From the sequence record AP019521.1: a stretch of 64,000 nucleotides of DNA; one strand, given 5' to 3'. Origin of the DNA: Escherichia phage KIT01. A program made the position numbers and the translations under genes. This document shows positions 6,768 to 26,835 of the stretch, one piece after another (position 1 is the first letter of the stretch; every line of letters starts with the position of its first letter). The notes under the pieces are model-generated. The model had not been told where the DNA came from. It ran no database searches and worked only from the letters and a program-made list of their open reading frames with translations.

Positions 6768-7383
6768 TGTATTTCCTCATAAAAGTAATAACCATACCAT
6801 CATACCACACTTCCGGATATTTGTGTTCTATTGCTATAGTTCTAAACCTTCTAGCTTTAGGCATTCCAGATTCTACCCATAATGAATACAGTTCATCCTC
6901 TTTATCCCAAGGTATATTTTTACTTCGTCTGTTTGGCCTTGGTACATCTTTAGCCCAATGGACCTGATGCTTGAATTTTTCCTTCATTGTTTTAGATTGC
7001 CGTTCTCTACCTATCTTAGTAGAAGGATTTTTCTTTCCTAACATAGGATGAACTTCCATTAATTGCCCGCCGACACCGCCTTTAGCTATATTAACACAAT
7101 TACTAAATTTAATTTTGGCTTCGCCAACTAAGAGTTCTTCAAACTCAGCATTCAATTCTAGGGTAGGTTGAACGGACAGAATATGTTTTACAAATCTAGT
7201 ATTTGGGTTTTTCTTGGCAGATTTTATAAAAATACCAGACCCTAAATAACTATTATTTAGAGAAGTGCTGGTGTGCTTACCAAAATAGACCCAGTAATTA
7301 TTATCTGTAAATATTTCTGTCATATAACAATAATGTATTTTATCTCTCATCGCATGTTTCCTGTGTAATAACCATAGGACCAT
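6757..7383 (-). CDS. GIY-YIG-like putative homing endonuclease (Seg-like), basic C-terminus
   Basis: N-terminal IHY...(14 aa)...VYFG resembles a GIY-YIG motif; Lys/Arg-rich C-terminal half; sits between uvsY and gene 25, which are adjacent in T4. Likely true start is the internal ATG at about 7350 (MRDKIHY...). Confidence 0.5.
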   Translation of the reverse strand: MVLWLLHRKHAMRDKIHYCYMTEIFTDNNYWVYFGKHTSTSLNNSYLGSGIFIKSAKKNPNTRFVKHILSVQPTLELNAEFEELLVGEAKIKFSNCVNIAKGGVGGQLMEVHPMLGKKNPSTKIGRERQSKTMKEKFKHQVHWAKDVPRPNRRSKNIPWDKEDELYSLWVESGMPKARRFRTIAIEHKYPEVWYDGMVITFMRKYNGN

Positions 7384-7408
7384 TATACACTATTCATTTG
7401 AACAGCAA

Positions 7409-7798
7409 TTAACCACTCTGTGAGAGCTGGATTCTAATTTGCTCTAATGTATCAGGGTCATCAACTATACTAAACTGAACCGTTACTATAATCGAGTTAT
7501 CATCGTACACGGGTGTCACACCTACAGCTAGAGCAGAAATTCTAGGTTCGAAGTTCCGCACGGCGGAAACTATATTACGCTTAATGGTATCCGTGATTAA
7601 TGGGGTGATATTCTCAAACAATTGGTTACTGATGTCACAACCAAATTCCGGCATAAAAGGGCGTGAACCTTTGCGAGTAGTAATAATGCCTAACAAACTA
7701 TTTTTTACTGCACGAGCACCTGTAGCTTTAGCGACGTCTCTATTCCAAGACGTCCTCATTTCAGGGTCTAAATCTGAATACATTTTATTGATATTCAT
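7409..7798 (-). CDS. 25: gp25 baseplate wedge protein
   Basis: 129 aa; matches T4 gp25 (NINK.YSD.DPEM...NSLLGIITTRKGSRPF.PEFGCD). Confidence 0.95.
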   Translation of the reverse strand: MNINKMYSDLDPEMRTSWNRDVAKATGARAVKNSLLGIITTRKGSRPFMPEFGCDISNQLFENITPLITDTIKRNIVSAVRNFEPRISALAVGVTPVYDDNSIIVTVQFSIVDDPDTLEQIRIQLSQSG

Positions 7799-14675: not shown

Positions 14676-14966
14676 TTATTTACGGAACGAAATGAAACCT
14701 GCTGTGGTCATTAGTGGTTGCTTTTTAACAAAGACCGTGATAGAAATAGGAGCTTCAGATTCAAGCTGACCGGTTACTACACCATTAAAGATATTTTCAG
14801 TTTGTTCTGGATGAGAAAAATTCTCAACAGGTCGGATATCAAACTGTTTGTCTTCACCGAAAACTCGACGTAATTCATTACCTACTGCACTGTCAAACTC
14901 TTCGGAAGCAGGGATAACGTTTTCAACCACCAGTTCTTGACCATTAAAACGGAATGCAGATTTCAT
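14676..14966 (-). CDS. Hypothetical protein downstream of the alt cluster
   Basis: 96-aa ORF following the alt paralogs on the same strand. Confidence 0.5.
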   Translation of the reverse strand: MKSAFRFNGQELVVENVIPASEEFDSAVGNELRRVFGEDKQFDIRPVENFSHPEQTENIFNGVVTGQLESEAPISITVFVKKQPLMTTAGFISFRK

Positions 14967-15023: not shown

Positions 15024-17147
15024 CTACATTTTGAATTTATTTGATAAAGAAGAGATATCCAAAGACGCGGCAAGGATTTCCATAGCTTCGTTGCTTTCAG
15101 AAACGGATTCATTAACCAAGAATTGACTGAATCCATCCATCAGGCGAACTTCACCAGTTTCCATCAAATGGTCACCATCGTAAACAGATTCGCTGAGCTC
15201 TGAAGGAGGCGTTACGGTAGCTTCCATAAGGTATTTGTGAGATACTCTATCATTCATGGCAAAAGCCGCTACTTTATCAACCTTCAACAATAATCCACGC
15301 GGAAGGATAATTTCTGCTTCTTCGGCATATTCTGTAAGGTCACCAGGAGCGATAACTTTAACTGCTTCAGCACCTCGAATAACCATACCAATTTCAGCAA
15401 TTCTATCCGCAGGACCTTCAGGTGCAATTGGATTACCGAACTCGTCTTCTTCCCATTCTACCTCTTCGTCATCGACTTCACCCACATCAGATGAACTACC
15501 ACTAGCCAATTTAAACAACTCATCAGCAGAGGATAAAGAACCTTCACCACCAACAAAAACGGCTTGGTTGTCGAGGGCCATATAATTTTTACCAAATTCA
15601 CCAAAGATGTTAGGCTTTAATGAGGCTGACACAAAGTTCTTAAAGTAAAATGTTTTGTTATCGATATTATGGCGCAGAATTTTGTATGGCAAATCCTGAC
15701 CACGATACAAAATAGTACCCTTAGGAAGTTTAATACCCTTAGTAAATGCTGAGTCTAAATCCTTAATCAATTTAATAGCCGTTGTATTGTTTTCGGATTC
15801 AGGTTTACCTAAAAGGAATAAGTTCATAGGAGCATATTCAGCCGCGCAATATTCAATAATAGCATTGCTTTCGTCTTTGGTTAGGTCCTTAGGTTTAATG
15901 AGCTCGCCTGAATAAGCATATGCATCACTAATAGAATCGTTAACCAGTTTATAAACGGCTTCCATAGCGAAAGCAATTCGAGATGCTTTCTCTGAAGGGG
16001 AACCCTTAAAACGGGTACTCAGGTTATTAACAATTTTCTTAATAATATCCAGACTATTGGTTGTATTGATTTGCGAAAGGCCACTTAAAAGTCTATCGAC
16101 TTCTGTATTAAAAAATGCCATATTATTAGAGTAAATTTCAAACCCTTGTTTATCTCTATTAGCATAATTTAGTTTAAATTTACTATCAGTCATTAAAGCG
16201 TGTGTGAGAGCAATAGTGTATCTAAAGTTGGCAAGGTCCTCGCTCTTAGATTTAAACTGAGAAGCCTGGCGCATTTTAGTAATAGCACCTTTTTTAAAGT
16301 TCTGACTAATCTGTTCAATACCTTCGTTCTCAGGGCCTTCAGCCGTGTGAACCGGTACAGAAGCTTCAAACTCGTTATAAACCTGCAATTCTTTAGGGGA
16401 CAAAGTTTCAGGCTCAGCAGTAGAATACTGCGCGGCCGCTGCCATACGACGCGAAATCTTAGTACGAGTAATAACAGCCTTATCAGTACGTTTCTCTTCA
16501 ACTTGTGCAATAGATGCCGCTACGGCTTCGACCTTACTTACGGCCTGGCCAGTTTTCTTAGAAACATACACTTCGCCAACTTTAGACTCAACTTTAGTAT
16601 AAAGATCGGCATTAATTTCAGGCATACCCTTGATATCTTCAATATTAGCACCACGACGTACTAAAAGAACGTAGGTATGTTTTCCGCTGAATTGGAACAT
16701 GTCGTCAACAACTTTAAACTTACCACCGGTACGAGCCATAGCCAAACGAGCTAATACGCGCTGGACGGTAGGACCTTTACCTTTCATTTTCTTAGTAGGG
16801 AAACGGAACAAAACCGCGTCCATTTTAAGTTTGTTTACTTGTTCGTATATGGTATCGAAAATGGTGTTCAGTGTACCGAGTGGATCGGTACCCAAACCAC
16901 CCTTGAGTTCTGCCGGAGCGCCTTTAGCAGATAAACTCATTAAGATAACATGGACGTACTTATCACCATTTTTAACCATCTTAATAGCGTCGCCTTCAGA
17001 CGCATAAGATACCATACGTGCTACTAAATTGTCATTACCAGGAGCATGTACCGCAAAAATCTGCGGTACGCCTGAGCCAGGTTTAAGATTTGTTACTGGG
17101 TAATTTTTTTTATCGCTTTTATCAAAAACTTCGTTTAAATTTTCCAT
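15024..17147 (-). CDS. alt: Alt-like mono-ADP-ribosyltransferase, paralog 1 (acidic insert, SAS variant of the STS motif)
   Basis: 707 aa; N-terminal about 230 aa and C-terminal region match T4 Alt; has YRGQ, FVSASLKP and EIILPRG. Confidence 0.85.
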   Translation of the reverse strand: MENLNEVFDKSDKKNYPVTNLKPGSGVPQIFAVHAPGNDNLVARMVSYASEGDAIKMVKNGDKYVHVILMSLSAKGAPAELKGGLGTDPLGTLNTIFDTIYEQVNKLKMDAVLFRFPTKKMKGKGPTVQRVLARLAMARTGGKFKVVDDMFQFSGKHTYVLLVRRGANIEDIKGMPEINADLYTKVESKVGEVYVSKKTGQAVSKVEAVAASIAQVEEKRTDKAVITRTKISRRMAAAAQYSTAEPETLSPKELQVYNEFEASVPVHTAEGPENEGIEQISQNFKKGAITKMRQASQFKSKSEDLANFRYTIALTHALMTDSKFKLNYANRDKQGFEIYSNNMAFFNTEVDRLLSGLSQINTTNSLDIIKKIVNNLSTRFKGSPSEKASRIAFAMEAVYKLVNDSISDAYAYSGELIKPKDLTKDESNAIIEYCAAEYAPMNLFLLGKPESENNTTAIKLIKDLDSAFTKGIKLPKGTILYRGQDLPYKILRHNIDNKTFYFKNFVSASLKPNIFGEFGKNYMALDNQAVFVGGEGSLSSADELFKLASGSSSDVGEVDDEEVEWEEDEFGNPIAPEGPADRIAEIGMVIRGAEAVKVIAPGDLTEYAEEAEIILPRGLLLKVDKVAAFAMNDRVSHKYLMEATVTPPSELSESVYDGDHLMETGEVRLMDGFSQFLVNESVSESNEAMEILAASLDISSLSNKFKM

Positions 17148-17150
17148 TAT

Positions 17151-19196
17151 TTACCCTTGGGTGAATTTTTCTGGGGTTTCGTCAAAATTAATACATGAAG
17201 CTAAAATAGGCATTATATCCACCTTGGTCGATTTGACGAATGAATCAAAAGACACAGGGTTGTCGGTCTCTGTTTCTACGCCTTGGTAAACAACCAATTC
17301 GCCGGTTTCCATCAATGCATCACCATCATAGATAACCGCATTTTCTGCTAGTTGGTCTGTGGTCTGGATGTCAGCTTCCAATAATTTGGTGTTGTAGTTT
17401 CCTTTATATGAGGCATCTGTAATTTTAGTAATCTTAACAGTAGTTCCACGTGGAAGAATAACCTCTTGTTCTGTTGGAGAACCTGACAATTCACCGGGCA
17501 CAATTACGTTAATAGAGTCTGCACCGGAAATTTTCCAACCGATGTTCATCATTGTATTTTCGGAACTCGTCAGCATACTTGGAAGAACAATTTCATTATC
17601 GCCTTGGAAAGATGTCCCAGCACGATAGTCCTGATGAACTGCGGCCATTGCGACGTTTGATACCCAGCCGCCAAAGATAATCGGCTTAAGGGACGTTGAT
17701 ACATAGTTCCTGAAATAAAACAATTTTGAGTGTTTGATTTTATCAAAAGTGTTAACATTTAAATATTGACCACGCCAAAGTGTAATATCAGGTGGCAATT
17801 TATGGCCAATTTCAAATGCCGCATCCATATCATTAATTACTTCAATTACACGATAACTATCAATAAATTCTGCATCCTCTTCATAATAATTACCCAACAA
17901 ATAATTATTAACATCGGTATAATATTGGCCGCAATAAGAAGAAATAGCCTCACGCTGCTCATACTCAAATCGATTATCGCTATAACTGGCTGTAAAATGC
18001 ATAACACTTTCTGACGCTTCATTAGCAAAGTCGCTAACAGCAGCACTTATACGTTGAGCATACTCTTGTTCCCAAAGCTCTGCCGCATATTCTGCCGCAT
18101 CCATATTAGGAGGAGCCTCATTCATTTTTCTTTCGATAAATGCAGCTTTGCGAAGGTTAAGAACCTCTGCACATGATTCGGCAAAAATCTGCATCTGCTT
18201 CATACTGCCGACAGGAGCACGTTTAAGTTCACGATGCATACGGTTAAAAATTGGGTCGGAGTCTTCGACTCGAATTTCTTCTTTCCAAACACCGTTTGCT
18301 CGCATAGCCATATCTGCCGCGCGCATACGCTCCATAGTATTCGTTTCAGAAGGTTGAATAAAAATTTCTAGTTCTTCATAATCATCGATAAGTTCTGCTG
18401 TTGCTGGGGCGCTAAATTTTGATGCCTCTGCATCAATCTCATCCCAACCTTCCGGAACTTCATCTCGAGGAGAATACTGGGCTGCGGCTACAGCACGCCT
18501 AGAAATCTTGGTAGTAGTAATAACAGCCTTATCCGTACGTTTTTCTTCGACTGCAGCTATACTAGCAGATAGTGCTTCTATTTTGGTTACTGATTGGCCT
18601 GTTTTCTTGGATACATAAACCTCACCAACTTTAGACTCAACCTTAGTGTAAAGGTCTGCATCAATTTCAGGCATACCTTTTATGTCCTCAATATTAGCTT
18701 GTTTACGAACCAGTAAAACGTATGTATGTTTGCCTGTAAATTGATACAAATCATCGACAACTTTAAACTTGCCGCCAGTACGAGCCATCGCCAAACGTGC
18801 CAATACACGTTGAACAGTAGGACCTTTACCTTTCATTTTCTTGGTAGGGAACCGGAAAAGAACTGCATCCATACGAAGAGCTTTAACTTGTTCGTATACA
18901 GTATCAAAAATGGTATTCAGCGTACCAAGTGGGTCAGAACCTAACCCGCCTTTCAACTCGGCTGGGGTACCCTTAGCAGACAAACTCATCAAAATAACAT
19001 GAACATATTTATCGCCCGGCTTAACCATTTTAATAGCGTCTCCTTGAGACGCATAAGATACCATACGAGCAACCAGGTTATCGTTACCTGGTGCTTGGAT
19101 AGAGAAAATCTGTGGAATACCGGAACCCGGTTTAAGATTTACTACTGGATAGTTTTTAGCGGAATCACTATCAAAAACCTCGTTTAAATTTTCCAT
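17151..19196 (-). CDS. alt: Alt-like mono-ADP-ribosyltransferase, paralog 2
   Basis: 681 aa; conserved N-terminus (MENLNEVFD...PQIFS...), WRGQ, YVSTSLKP and EVILPRG motifs; divergent central region. Confidence 0.85.
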   Translation of the reverse strand: MENLNEVFDSDSAKNYPVVNLKPGSGIPQIFSIQAPGNDNLVARMVSYASQGDAIKMVKPGDKYVHVILMSLSAKGTPAELKGGLGSDPLGTLNTIFDTVYEQVKALRMDAVLFRFPTKKMKGKGPTVQRVLARLAMARTGGKFKVVDDLYQFTGKHTYVLLVRKQANIEDIKGMPEIDADLYTKVESKVGEVYVSKKTGQSVTKIEALSASIAAVEEKRTDKAVITTTKISRRAVAAAQYSPRDEVPEGWDEIDAEASKFSAPATAELIDDYEELEIFIQPSETNTMERMRAADMAMRANGVWKEEIRVEDSDPIFNRMHRELKRAPVGSMKQMQIFAESCAEVLNLRKAAFIERKMNEAPPNMDAAEYAAELWEQEYAQRISAAVSDFANEASESVMHFTASYSDNRFEYEQREAISSYCGQYYTDVNNYLLGNYYEEDAEFIDSYRVIEVINDMDAAFEIGHKLPPDITLWRGQYLNVNTFDKIKHSKLFYFRNYVSTSLKPIIFGGWVSNVAMAAVHQDYRAGTSFQGDNEIVLPSMLTSSENTMMNIGWKISGADSINVIVPGELSGSPTEQEVILPRGTTVKITKITDASYKGNYNTKLLEADIQTTDQLAENAVIYDGDALMETGELVVYQGVETETDNPVSFDSFVKSTKVDIMPILASCINFDETPEKFTQG

Positions 19197-19199
19197 TAT

Positions 19200-21287
19200 T
19201 TACCCTTGGATGAATTTTTCTGGGATGTCATAGAGGTCTATGCATGAAGCCAAAAGAGACAGTACATCAAACCGTGTAGATTTAACAAATGAATCAAAAG
19301 ATACGGGGCTTTCGGAAGTATCGAAATCATCTTGATATACGACCAACTCACCGGTTTCCATTAGTACGTCACCATCATATACCACAGATTCTTGAAGCTC
19401 ATCTGATGTCATAACTTCAGCTTGAATAAATTTATTGTTAGACCCAGCCCCAGAACCAGTATTGGCTGATGCATCCACGATTTTATCTATTTTTACAAGT
19501 AGCCCGCGTGGTAAAATTATTTCCTTTTCGTTGGCATGCATGCTTAATTGGCCAGGATAAATCACGTTAACCTTATGAGCGCCACTAATAGCCCAGCCAA
19601 CATCAACCCGGATTTGATCCGGTGCATACATATGTGTACGCACTTGACTATCAGAGATGGTAACGCCTTCGTCATTATTATCAACGTTTAATTCTTTTCG
19701 AACATCATCGGAAGCAAGACCAATAGCCGCATTCTCTTTAAAGCCACCAAAAATGATTGGAGCCAATGAGGTTGAAACATAGTTTCTAAAATAGAATACC
19801 TTATTTTTAACTAATGCTTCGTAGATAGGCGCGCGCAAAGATTGGGCTCTATAAACCATTATTCCTTCAGGTAAACGGTCACCATTTTTAAAGGCCGAAT
19901 CCATTCCATCAATAGCACGTTTAACTTCGCTTTCGTCCAAAACTTCATAAAAGCCTGGTTTATAACGGCCAAGAAGGACATTGTTGATATCAACATAAGC
20001 TGAAGAGGCGTATTCTCTGATAGCTCGTTTTTCTGCAAGTGTATATTGTTTAGGGTCTCGAGATGTTGTTATATTAAGAATTTCTCTAGTTGATTCTATA
20101 GCGTATGTATACATTATCTTAGACAAGAATGAAGACTTACGTTGTTTCCATACTCTTTCACTGTTTTCATTCAATATCTCTTTTTCCAAATGGAAATTGT
20201 CTTTTCTATAATCTTCAAACCAATCACTTTTAATAGATTCTGCGATTTCATTAGCAGCTTCAACAAAGGCAGCTAAAGCTTTAACTGACGTGGTTTTTTC
20301 ATTTTTAATTTTTTTGACAAATTTTTCTAAAGAAGAGTTAATTTTATCACCGTAAGAAACTTCATCCGCAAATTTAAATGAATCATCCATAGTATTATAA
20401 ATTTTAAAATCAATAGCCGTAGCCAGCTTATCCTTAGCTGTTTCGGATGATAATGATAATTCAACTTCGGCTGCTTGTGGAATTAATTCCGCCGTAGCAG
20501 GTGCACTGAACTCATTGGCAGTTTGTTCATATTTCTGAAACAATTCACCTTCATTACGGTCTGCTTCTAATGACTGACTTGCTGCAATAGCACGACGGGA
20601 AATCTTAGTTTTGGTTATAACCATTTTATCAGTGCGACGTTCTTCAACTTTAGCAATACTGCCGGCAATAGCAGTTTCTTTAGTAACCTGCATGCCTTCT
20701 TTTTTAGAAATATAAACTTCACCGACATCAGAATCTACCTTAGTATATAATTCAGCATTAATTTCTGGTATACCCTTAATATCTTCAATGTTAGCTTGTT
20801 TACGAACTACCAGAATATAAGTATGTTTGCCGGTGAATTCATACATGGCTGGAACTACTTTAAATCGTCCACCAGTTTTCTGTGCTACTAAACGTTGAAT
20901 AATACGTTGAACGATAGGACCTTGTCCTTTCATTTTCTTGGTAGGGAACCGGAACATCACGGCATCCATACGAAGAGCTTTAACTTGTTCGTAGACAACA
21001 CTAAAGATAGTATTAATTGCATCGATAGGAGTAGGGCCAAGGCCACCCTTAAGTTCTGCTGGAGTACCTTTAGCTGATAAACTCATCAGAATAACGTGGG
21101 CATATTTATCACCTAATTTAACTTGTTTGATCGCGTCTCCTTGAGACGCATAAGATACCATACGAGCAACTAATTGGGACTCTGCATCGCCAATCTTCCA
21201 AATCTGGGGTACTTTAAGTTTAGGGTTCAAGTTTACTGTAGGCAGTGTGCCTTCGGACTCAAACACTTCATTTAATTGTTCGGTCAT
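19200..21287 (-). CDS. alt: Alt-like mono-ADP-ribosyltransferase, paralog 3 (closest to T4 Alt)
   Basis: 695 aa; YRAQSL, RNYVSTSLAP, NEKEIILPRGLLVKIDKI and C-terminal LMETGELV all match T4 Alt. Confidence 0.88.
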   Translation of the reverse strand: MTEQLNEVFESEGTLPTVNLNPKLKVPQIWKIGDAESQLVARMVSYASQGDAIKQVKLGDKYAHVILMSLSAKGTPAELKGGLGPTPIDAINTIFSVVYEQVKALRMDAVMFRFPTKKMKGQGPIVQRIIQRLVAQKTGGRFKVVPAMYEFTGKHTYILVVRKQANIEDIKGIPEINAELYTKVDSDVGEVYISKKEGMQVTKETAIAGSIAKVEERRTDKMVITKTKISRRAIAASQSLEADRNEGELFQKYEQTANEFSAPATAELIPQAAEVELSLSSETAKDKLATAIDFKIYNTMDDSFKFADEVSYGDKINSSLEKFVKKIKNEKTTSVKALAAFVEAANEIAESIKSDWFEDYRKDNFHLEKEILNENSERVWKQRKSSFLSKIMYTYAIESTREILNITTSRDPKQYTLAEKRAIREYASSAYVDINNVLLGRYKPGFYEVLDESEVKRAIDGMDSAFKNGDRLPEGIMVYRAQSLRAPIYEALVKNKVFYFRNYVSTSLAPIIFGGFKENAAIGLASDDVRKELNVDNNDEGVTISDSQVRTHMYAPDQIRVDVGWAISGAHKVNVIYPGQLSMHANEKEIILPRGLLVKIDKIVDASANTGSGAGSNNKFIQAEVMTSDELQESVVYDGDVLMETGELVVYQDDFDTSESPVSFDSFVKSTRFDVLSLLASCIDLYDIPEKFIQG

Positions 21288-21337
21288 AATAATTCCTCTT
21301 TAATAACCTTATTTATGCCAGAAAAGGCCCGAAGGCC

Positions 21338-21509: not shown

Positions 21510-23033
21510 TTATAACCCAGTTTGAGACCAATCGCCAAATACATCTTCAAATGTATCAGCTTCTGTTTTATCGAAACGCCAACCTTTAATGATTGGAAGG
21601 AAAATACCTACAGTATCGGTACGTCCTTTAGAATGAACCCAACCATTACATTCACAGTCGGCAATACGGCCAATCAATTTACCTTCACGAGCTTGTTTCA
21701 TAAGAAGTTCACGGTCTAAATCAGGACGGTCTTCCAATGGAATCAATACCTTTTTACCTGATTTATCTTTCTTATGGGTGGTATCTTTAAAGCCTGAACC
21801 ACAGTCACTTGTAATTCTACGACAACGTGATACCAATTCAACACCACCAAGTTTGTTAGGGTCTTTCGAGTGTTCATAGTAACCTACTACTTCTAAAGCG
21901 ATATCGATTACTTCTTTGAACTTGATAAGATTCTTAGAACGGCGGTTTTCCCAGTAGGAGTCCATGTTCTTAAGGATAATACCTTCCAGACCTTGGTCGA
22001 CATATTTCTTATAAACGACTTTAGCTTCTTCAAGATTATTAACCCACCGGTTTTCGATAGCTTCAACACGCGTTGTACCGTGCAATACGACATTATGAGC
22101 AACCATAAGTTCTAAGGCTGTAAAGCGTACATCGTACTTATCGCCTTTAATTTTACCTTCGGAATACACGACATCCAGTGGAACATAATCCCATGCCTGT
22201 AATACCATACCGGCAGCTTCAGTAGCGGAAATAGTTCCTTGGAGAGCTTTATTAGCCAGGCCATTTGACGTAGAACGATCGGCGACAGTTTGGAATTCCT
22301 TAGCCTTACTTAATTCAGGAAGTTCCTCATCAAACATACTAAACAAATCATTAGATGCTTTAGGTTCTACTTTAGGAGTATGGTAAACTAATTCGCCATC
22401 AATCATAACACCATTAGGATGGCGTTGTCGAGCTTCTTCGGTCATGGCCATTAATTCAGCAGCTAAAAGATGAAGCCCTTGGTATTCATTACCACCACGA
22501 GTAAGGAATGTCACACCATCGTTACGAACTTCAGCAAAACAACGGGCGCCATCAGCTTTTAATTGAGCAAACGCTGGCCATTTAATATTTTTCTTAATCA
22601 AATCTTCATCATAAGAGCTAGCTAACATTTGAGGTTGTTCAGGGATTAAACCTTTCCAAACCTTGTTAGCAATGGAAATCGATGCACCGCATTCAAGGTC
22701 GCGCATCATTACACGACGTAATACCTCGGCATCTTGAGCCTTAGCATCGGCAATGATTTGAGCCAGTTCTTCAATAGCTGCATTACCGGTAACCTTACGA
22801 GTGGCTAATGTGAATTCAGCGAAATCAAGAAGGTCTTCAAGAGTAATCATACCAAAGGATTGAGACGTAAATCCAGGTTCAGGCCACTTTTTAATACCGT
22901 AGTTCAGACGACGAGTATAAGCCATACGATATACGCGTTTCAGAAGCTCATTATCCTTTTCACGAGCAATAATAGCTTCTTTAGCTTTAGTAGAATCAAT
23001 AGAAGCAATTTCGTTTAAAATATCTAAAATCAT
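21510..23033 (-). CDS. 30: ATP-dependent DNA ligase (gp30)
   Basis: 507 aa; strong match to T4 DNA ligase (MIL.ILNEIASI.STK.K.AI...; adenylation motif KADGARCFAEVR). Confidence 0.95.
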   Translation of the reverse strand: MILDILNEIASIDSTKAKEAIIAREKDNELLKRVYRMAYTRRLNYGIKKWPEPGFTSQSFGMITLEDLLDFAEFTLATRKVTGNAAIEELAQIIADAKAQDAEVLRRVMMRDLECGASISIANKVWKGLIPEQPQMLASSYDEDLIKKNIKWPAFAQLKADGARCFAEVRNDGVTFLTRGGNEYQGLHLLAAELMAMTEEARQRHPNGVMIDGELVYHTPKVEPKASNDLFSMFDEELPELSKAKEFQTVADRSTSNGLANKALQGTISATEAAGMVLQAWDYVPLDVVYSEGKIKGDKYDVRFTALELMVAHNVVLHGTTRVEAIENRWVNNLEEAKVVYKKYVDQGLEGIILKNMDSYWENRRSKNLIKFKEVIDIALEVVGYYEHSKDPNKLGGVELVSRCRRITSDCGSGFKDTTHKKDKSGKKVLIPLEDRPDLDRELLMKQAREGKLIGRIADCECNGWVHSKGRTDTVGIFLPIIKGWRFDKTEADTFEDVFGDWSQTGL

Positions 23034-26827: not shown

Positions 26828-26835
26828 TATTTATA
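26828..26835 (-). promoter_or_regulatory. Late promoter (TATAAATA, minus strand) upstream of rIII
   Basis: Exact TATAAATA on the minus strand immediately after the gene 31 stop; a 130-nt leader with the GTGGAC...GTCCAC inverted repeat follows. Confidence 0.45.

Follow-up and report, generated by a model that had tools for sequence, protein, structure and literature searches.

We analyzed a 64,000-nucleotide stretch of DNA (the window) from Escherichia phage KIT01 (sequence record AP019521.1), a T4-type phage of the genus Dhakavirus (JS98-like). By gene order its alt region is the T4 alt locus, and three tandem paralogs for Alt-like ADP-ribosyltransferases (ARTs), here called par1, par2, and par3, lie there (Table 1). 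The subject of this analysis is par1, a known and annotated gene ("altb" of JS98 and IME08). Judged by its sequence, par1 represents in Dhakavirus a second and old lineage of Alt enzymes, here named AltB, whose orthologous members include altb of JS98 and IME08 as well as T2_202. Its product is probably an active, injected, Arg-specific mono-ADP-ribosyltransferase, and an acidic loop, which appears to be undescribed so far, is the only unusual element of the gene. The finding is a modest one, since it concerns a known gene, an ordinary member of its family, with a benign motif variant and one lineage-specific loop.

The par1 gene and the AltB lineage

Table 1. Genes and features of the alt region, listed from the DNA ligase gene to the baseplate genes (positions in the window; aa, amino acids; ORF, open reading frame).
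Feature	Position	Strand	Remarks
DNA ligase gene (gene 30)	21510-23033	-	
alt.1-like ORF	between DNA ligase and par3	-	
Terminator-like hairpin GGCCTTCGGGCC + TTTT, then CATAAATA box	21310..21337	-	directly after alt.1-like ORF, upstream of par3
par3, third tandem Alt paralog	19200..21287	-	695 aa; STS, EKE; PF03496; nearest to T4 Alt
par2, second tandem Alt paralog	17151..19196	-	681 aa; STS, EQE; PF03496
par1, AltB-type Alt-like ADP-ribosyltransferase gene	15024..17147	-	2124-nt ORF; 707 aa + stop
N-terminal MENLNE of par1, with L-x-E	17130..17147	-	putative prohead-protease (gp21) cleavage/capsid-targeting peptide; motif only
N-terminal domain of par1, aa 1-245	16413..17147	-	common to all Alt proteins; presumed head incorporation
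Middle all-helical domain of par1, aa 246-415	15903..16412	-	lineage-specific; helices 251-417 in AlphaFold2 (AF2) model
ADP-ribosyltransferase domain of par1, aa 416-650	15198..15902	-	R-S-E clade; PF03496, Foldseek, and profile matches
R482, R of R-S-EXE	15702..15704	-	in LYRGQ
S507-A508-S509, S-A-S form of STS strand	15621..15629	-	alignment and coordinates
Segment after STS strand, aa 510-582	15402..15620	-	conserved PN-loop-like start LKPNIFGEFG, then lineage-specific region
Acidic insert SSDVGEVDDEEVEWEEDEFGNPIAPEGP, aa 552-579	15411..15494	-	28 residues, 12 Asp/Glu, no Lys/Arg
E610-A611-E612, ExE of R-S-EXE	15312..15320	-	ARTT-loop Y607 ahead
C-terminal tail of par1, aa 651-707	15027..15197	-	conserved YDGDHLMETGE block and AltB-type end ...NKFKM; low AF2 confidence
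alt.-3 homologue	14676-14966	-	96 aa, DUF5498; directly downstream of par1
Baseplate genes 54, 48, 29	beyond alt.-3 homologue	+	

The par1 gene is 98% identical at the nucleotide level to alt_1 of fDHCT2 and to genes of QL01 and MX01 annotated alt/RNA polymerase ADP-ribosylase, the QL01 counterpart carrying the latter name. The altb genes of JS98, JS10, and IME08 are the same gene as par1 (92-98% nucleotide identity; 92% for the IME08 orthologue), with the S-A-S strand and an identical loop, and differ from it by point differences only, which cluster in the N-terminal domain. Instead of the three alt genes found here, JS98 and IME08 carry two. The profile phrog_802 ("Alt-like RNA polymerase ADP-ribosyltransferase") covers residues 1-707 of par1 (E = 2e-248) and PF03496 matches it at E = 2.6e-17, and full-length phrog_802 and PF03496 matches were found for all three paralogs.

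The protein has the full Alt architecture of N-terminal domain, helical middle domain, ART domain, and YDGD tail, and its gene lies between gene 30 (DNA ligase)/alt.1 and alt.-3/gene 54. In the AF2 model the N-terminal domain is mixed alpha/beta with a predicted local distance difference test score (pLDDT) mostly of 70-87, and the ART core is confident (pLDDT mostly 73-93) and has the ART fold. Its best PDB matches in Foldseek are Vis, Certhrax, C3, CDTa, and VIP2, with a probability of 1.00 for Vis, C3, Certhrax, and CDTa. A PDB sequence search with par1 alone gave marginal C3 matches only, and a PDB profile search returned BECa, C3, Certhrax, VIP2, and iota Ia in alignments that break at the insert and provide no residue map across the loop. 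Like par1, the toxins C3bot, Vis, Certhrax, iota Ia, CDTa, VIP2, and BECa combine the ART fold with an Arg, an STS strand, an ExE (or QxE), and a Y-x4-Y-x3-N helix for nicotinamide adenine dinucleotide (NAD), but these C3-like and binary toxins are only 12-18% identical to par1 and lack the phage N-terminal and middle domains.

T4 Alt (gpAlt, NP_049811; 682 aa) shares with par1 the N-terminal domain presumed to serve head incorporation, the helical middle domain, the R-S-EXE ART domain, the YDGD..METGE tail, an N terminus with L-x-E, and the locus. Identity between the two is 34% overall, 16% in the middle domain, and 39-40% in the ART core, and T4 Alt differs from par1 in having STS, IGW rather than IGM, a 68-aa spacer between STS and ExE with a charge of -4, no aromatic residue at position -3 of ExE, and the end ...KFVQG. 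The closer counterpart of T4 Alt in the window is par3, not par1.

The relatives of par1 lie elsewhere. It is 51-54% identical to members of the AltB lineage versus 33-37% to other Alt proteins, and its nearest relatives beyond Dhakavirus are the second alt genes of T2-like Tequatroviruses (about 54% in the ART domain). T2_202 (BBC14817), annotated only as "hypothetical protein," is 51% identical to par1 over the full length. Common to the two are a middle domain of their own, a YMALD..GEG block, IGM, Tyr or Phe at position -3 of ExE, the ...KFKM end, and the slot next to alt.-3, with T2_202 directly upstream of alt.-3 and par1 the last alt gene before it. An AltB-type gene is intact in T2, RB51, AR1, and many other Tequatroviruses, and an evenly spaced listing drawn from the 1222 matching phage records suggests that about a third of these carry such a T2-like second alt gene. 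In T4, the translation of alt.-1/alt.-2 (7066-7451 of the retrieved locus), read in two frames, matches residues 1-116 of T2_202 with 95-97% identity. Because alt.-1/alt.-2 are thus the stump of a T2_202-type gene, T4 has lost the AltB lineage, and recently; its absence from T4 in turn marks the AltB gene as accessory.

A homologue search with the ART domain of par1 alone returned two proteins only, both T2-type fragments, and the family was therefore sampled by profile and exhaustive representative searches. These returned no Dhakavirus AltB protein, and the Dhakavirus copies discussed below come from phage and IMG/VR collections.

Active-site strand and acidic loop

The preliminary description of this DNA had pointed to a variant active-site motif in par1, and the ORFs bear it out when read directly: par1 has FYFKNFVSASLKP, including FVSASLKP, where par2 has YVSTSLKP and par3 YVSTSLAP. 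R-S-EXE is the signature of Arg-specific ARTs, and only the first Ser of the strand is part of it (PMC3102197). As in the Arg-specific R-S-EXE clade, par1 has the aromatic-R Arg on beta-1, the Ser of the STS strand, and the Glu-x-Glu on beta-5, which consists of the catalytic Glu and, at -2 from it, the Glu responsible for Arg specificity. In an alignment of 58 sequences, R482, S507, S509, E610, E612, Y433, Y438, N442, F515, and G516 are invariant, and the spacing of Y433/Y438/N442 is that of Y246/Y251/N255 in iota toxin; the roles of the ART residues, including the NAD helix, are taken from PMC3202787. The residue in which par1 departs from the consensus S-T-S is the middle Thr (A508), which lies outside the defining signature.

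How rare this departure is depends on the sample. The column is at least 90% Thr in the 58-sequence alignment, and among about 120 close homologues 118 have STS and one SSS, which leaves par1 as the sole SAS. Across the wider Alt family, sampled as 85 representatives of 50% clusters, the middle residue is T in 69, C in 10, A in 3, S in 1, and another residue in 2, and the strand reads STS in 65, STT in 4, SCS in 9, SCT in 1, SAS in 3, and SSS in 1. Thr is replaced by A, C, or S in 14 of the 85 representatives that keep the R and the ExE, and the three independent SAS representatives retain both YRGQ and ExE. All 8 Dhakavirus copies read have SAS, and all but one deletion allele also have EAE and the 100-residue spacer described below. 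The substitution at 508 corresponds to a single nucleotide change, with ACN in T2_202, par2, and par3 versus GCC in par1. In iota toxin, T339A keeps activity without a marked change in Km or kcat (PMC3202787), and in CDTa Ala can take the place even of the strand's first Ser (PMC5613739). No position of the STS strand is less critical than the middle Thr, and the comparisons suggest that Thr-to-Ala in par1 is a tolerated natural variant at a non-essential position that would not inactivate the enzyme.

Two further candidate peculiarities of par1, W588-to-M and Y607, were dropped, as a broader sample has M, F, or L in place of the Trp, and an aromatic residue at -3 of ExE, often or as a rule, which makes the T4-type Alt the atypical one. 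Tyr, Phe, or His stands at -3 in most Alt-family representatives as in par1, with Pro in T4 Alt, Ser in par2, and His in par3. About half of the Alt-family representatives have Cys between the two Glu residues (ECE).

The strongly acidic insert that had been reported for par1 is present as well (SSDVGEVDDEEVEWEEDEFGNPIAPEGP). Over 28-residue windows of the protein, the charge goes down to -13, and because -12 or below was seen in only 6 of 2000 shuffles that preserve composition, the acidic cluster is beyond chance. The insert had been placed immediately upstream of EIILPRG; in fact, two beta strands (583-591 and 596-599) and the ARTT (ADP-ribosylating turn-turn) loop intervene before E610. 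Relative to par2 and par3, the extra sequence of par1 consists of two blocks, about 14 residues of MALDNQAVFVGGEG, which the T2 orthologue also has, and about 23-25 acidic residues, which are specific to Dhakavirus. The STS-to-ExE spacer of par1 has 100 residues and a net charge of -17, which makes it the longest and most acidic among about 200 Alt relatives. The same spacer has 68-90 residues and a median charge of -4 in about 120 homologues, and 38-90 residues and charges from +7 to -9 in the 85 family representatives. T2_202, which lacks the 23-25-residue acidic insert and has STS rather than SAS, has 77 residues versus 100 and a charge of -7 versus -17. Since the T2_202 spacer already stands at -7, the AltB lineage was acidic before Dhakavirus added these residues and about 10 more negative charges.

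Scans of IMG/VR and metagenomes for intermediates with a partial insert found none, only Dhakavirus with the insert and the T2 type without it. No tandem repeat was found in the DNA of the insert, and an origin by slippage was rejected on that ground. The (L/I)-x-E protease motifs around the loop, IAE at 585-587 and LTE at 604-606, were judged by eye to be chance occurrences of a low-information motif.

Structure prediction, which the preliminary description had proposed as a check, was informative for the ART core, but the insert itself was modeled with little confidence (pLDDT < 50 for residues 516-566 and 572-580). The Gly/Ser/Asp/Glu/Pro-rich composition of the loop is consistent with this low confidence. 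By topology, the segment starts right after the PN (phosphate-nicotinamide)-loop-like LKPNIFGEFG and ends at the strand leading into the ARTT loop. In iota-like toxins, the PN and ARTT loops touch NAD and substrate, as in the Ia-actin complex. The stretch from STS to the catalytic Glu is short in C3-like and binary toxins, about 35 aa in C3bot, whereas the Alt family inserts 38-100 aa there, which is where the profile alignments to PDB toxins break.

Strong purifying selection acts on the gene. In comparisons with JS98, IME08, and IME341, the ratio of non-synonymous to synonymous substitution rates (dN/dS) of par1 is 0.06-0.085 over its full length, with values of 0.03-0.05 for the ART domain. 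Across these comparisons, the 35 codons for residues 548-582 show 0 non-synonymous versus 9, 6, and 2 synonymous differences, while synonymous sites diverge to a dS of 0.1-0.6. In 41 Dhakavirus phage records, the 363-nt loop region has identical length, with no indel and 94-99% identity. Strong purifying selection keeps the insert, which argues that it is functional. The catalytic R, S, and E show neither the loss nor the relaxed constraint of a pseudoenzyme.

Possible roles of par1 and its loop

We favor, with fair though far from complete confidence, an account in which par1 is an active AltB enzyme, Thr-to-Ala is benign, and the acidic loop is a selected, genus-specific surface element whose preferred role is target steering. 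By analogy with T4 Alt, late expression of a three-gene alt operon would yield par1, and the N-terminal domain common to the paralogs would bring it into the prohead. There the prohead protease would trim it after MENLNE; injected with the DNA, it would then use NAD+ to mono-ADP-ribosylate arginines of host proteins. The protease, gp21 (gene product 21), cleaves after (L/I)-x-E, and MENLNE of par1 aligns with MELITE of T4 Alt. In T4, a small N-terminal peptide of gpAlt is removed by gp21, and gpAlt is packaged at about 40 copies (PMC9958956). Packaging of par1 would fit its L-x-E N terminus and its homogenized N-terminal domain.

The acidic insert would be a genus-specific expansion in a segment that varies across the family, located where the chain leaves the PN loop, on the side of the NAD cleft that faces the substrate. 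From there it could steer the enzyme electrostatically toward basic, nucleic-acid-binding surfaces of host targets. Together with the lineage-specific middle domain, the loop may give par1 a target set distinct from those of par2 and par3. The preliminary description had suggested altered specificity, and this is plausible from the sequence, although the grounds for it are the separate, old lineage and the acidic loop, not SAS.

Several observations weigh against this account. Catalysis, and even the whole gene, may be dispensable on laboratory hosts, because an AltB orthologue without ExE exists in phage vB_EcoM_005 and T4 has lost the gene. The vB_EcoM_005 orthologue (MK295203; 3789-5813 of the retrieved locus) has an in-frame deletion of 99 nt (33 aa) that removes EEAEIILPRG...YLM, so that both ExE and LPRG are gone, and the junction carries GAAGC microhomology. 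The allele comes from one isolate under two accession numbers, with a record of only 155 kb, and either the allele is natural and catalytically dead or the assembly is at fault. Some kinetic cost of Thr-to-Ala is possible because Thr is so highly conserved in close relatives, and an iota-toxin review terms the T339A loss "significant but not severe" (PMC3202787). Target steering by the loop is a hypothesis, and where the loop lies with respect to the NAD cleft is predicted from topology, not from distances. Its low pLDDT may stem partly from an alignment with only two AltB-type rows and not from true disorder, and the equivalent 50-residue segment of par3 (residues 508-560) is a confident, mostly helical subdomain (pLDDT 81-94). 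On these models, the Alt family would carry a structured insertion that is absent from C3- and iota-type toxins. A literature search also found no enzymatic, proteomic, or genetic work on an AltB-type protein or a second Alt lineage.

An unlikely but serious alternative is that the loop serves the virion stage, where it would prevent sticking to condensed DNA and ease ejection, or that, until injection, it covers the NAD/arginine site as an autoinhibitory lid. Such a role would suit a protein predicted to be packaged in the head beside DNA, with a loop that directly follows the PN loop where the NAD cleft opens and has no Arg in residues 510-581, which also means that the loop would not itself be a substrate. 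The other Alt proteins (par2, par3, T4 Alt, and T2_202) would be packaged alike, however, and have no such loop. The data do not separate a virion or lid function from target steering.

We would give only a small chance to a second possibility, in which the loop, with its Trp/Phe residues, is a nucleic-acid mimic or charge filter that docks on DNA- or RNA-binding host surfaces, where key arginines would then be modified, and/or repels NAD-capped RNA, so that the enzyme is restricted to plain ADP-ribosylation, unlike ModB-type RNAylation. T4 Alt modifies the alpha C-terminal domain (alpha-CTD) at R265. If this reading were true, the enzyme would contain a specificity module of a kind that has yet to be described in an ART.

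It is very doubtful that the insert is a neutral low-complexity expansion in a tolerant loop, with no function of its own. The segment after STS does vary in length (38-100 aa) and sequence across the family, and confidence in its AF2 model is low, but the 41 records without an indel, the unchanged amino acids of its 35 codons at a dS of 0.1-0.6, and the lack of a tandem DNA repeat that would signal slippage all speak against neutrality. The low dN/dS, the absence of indels, and the constant amino acid sequence of the acidic segment fit neither a neutral insert nor a decaying decoy.

Least credible, and not supported by the analysis, is the earlier suggestion that par1 is a non-catalytic decoy. 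As a pseudoenzyme, par1 would be unable to use NAD because of SAS and the bulky acidic loop and would work by binding alone, for instance by titrating a host factor or an Alt-recognizing defense sensor. The conservation of the middle Thr in close Alt relatives, the ExE-deleted allele of vB_EcoM_005, and the ability of T4 to do without the gene lend it some color, but par1 keeps R-S-EXE and the Y/Y/N helix, which a pseudoenzyme would be expected to lose, under the purifying selection on its ART domain, SAS and SCS occur alongside intact R and ExE in other lineages, iota toxin T339A is active, and the single isolate, 155-kb record, and microhomology junction of the deleted allele fit a recent lesion or assembly artefact.

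T4-type phages inject ADP-ribosyltransferases, and the host is reprogrammed within seconds. To our knowledge, T4 Alt is the only injected Alt enzyme studied so far. Many T-even phages (T2, RB51, AR1, and all Dhakaviruses) have two or three Alt enzymes. Within each set the packaging domain is common to all but the middle and catalytic domains diverge, a pattern suggestive of a small arsenal in which each enzyme has its own targets. If the acidic loop is indeed a target-selection element, as we favor, it would offer a simple handle on substrate choice by injected ARTs.

Paralogs and organization of the locus

Tandem alt paralogs in T4-like phages were already noted by Nolan et al. 2006 (PMC1524935). 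Only 3 nt separate par3 from par2 and par2 from par1. The CATAAATA box that follows the hairpin ahead of par3 departs from the T4 late-promoter box at 1 position, and between it and par3 stands a Shine-Dalgarno sequence. The 3-nt gaps, together with the hairpin, CATAAATA, and Shine-Dalgarno sequence, give the three alt genes the look of a single late operon, and we infer promoter function for CATAAATA and terminator function for GGCCTTCGGGCC from these motifs. Exact TATAAATA late promoters show no excess over chance across the window, and none stands directly upstream of the alt genes; on the alt strand the nearest exact TATAAATA box is at 26828, with none within 5 kb upstream of the alt genes. 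Concerning the gene downstream of par1, T4 mutants with a C-terminally extended Alt.-3 evade the CmdTAC ADP-ribosyltransferase defense system (PMC11618068).

The three paralogs are far more alike at their N termini than elsewhere. The N-terminal domain of par1 is 87% identical to that of par2, 66% to that of par3, and 41% to that of T4 Alt (N-terminal ~245 codons: 16413-17147 in par1, 18462-19196 in par2, and 20556-21287 in par3). Its middle domain is only 15-18% identical to those of par2, par3, and T4 Alt, and its ART core 33-43%. Among the three paralogs, the middle domains are 15-22% and the ART cores 33-49% identical, and the ART core of par3 is 59-61% identical to that of T4 Alt. A shared N-terminal domain with divergent middle and ART domains suggests co-packaged enzymes that may have different targets. 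In comparisons between phages, dS in the N-terminal third of par1 is 0.65-0.88 and exceeds dS in the remainder of the gene by a factor of 3-5. This and the homogenization of the N-terminal domain suggest that the paralogs exchange sequence by gene conversion or recombination, or that the domain is co-adapted to the head core of its own phage.

The par2 gene is present in fDHCT2 and in the window but absent from IME08 and JS98-type genomes, which have two alt genes. It looks chimeric and recently gained, because its N terminus is par1-like whereas its ART domain is 33-51% identical to those of par1, par3, and T4 Alt alike.

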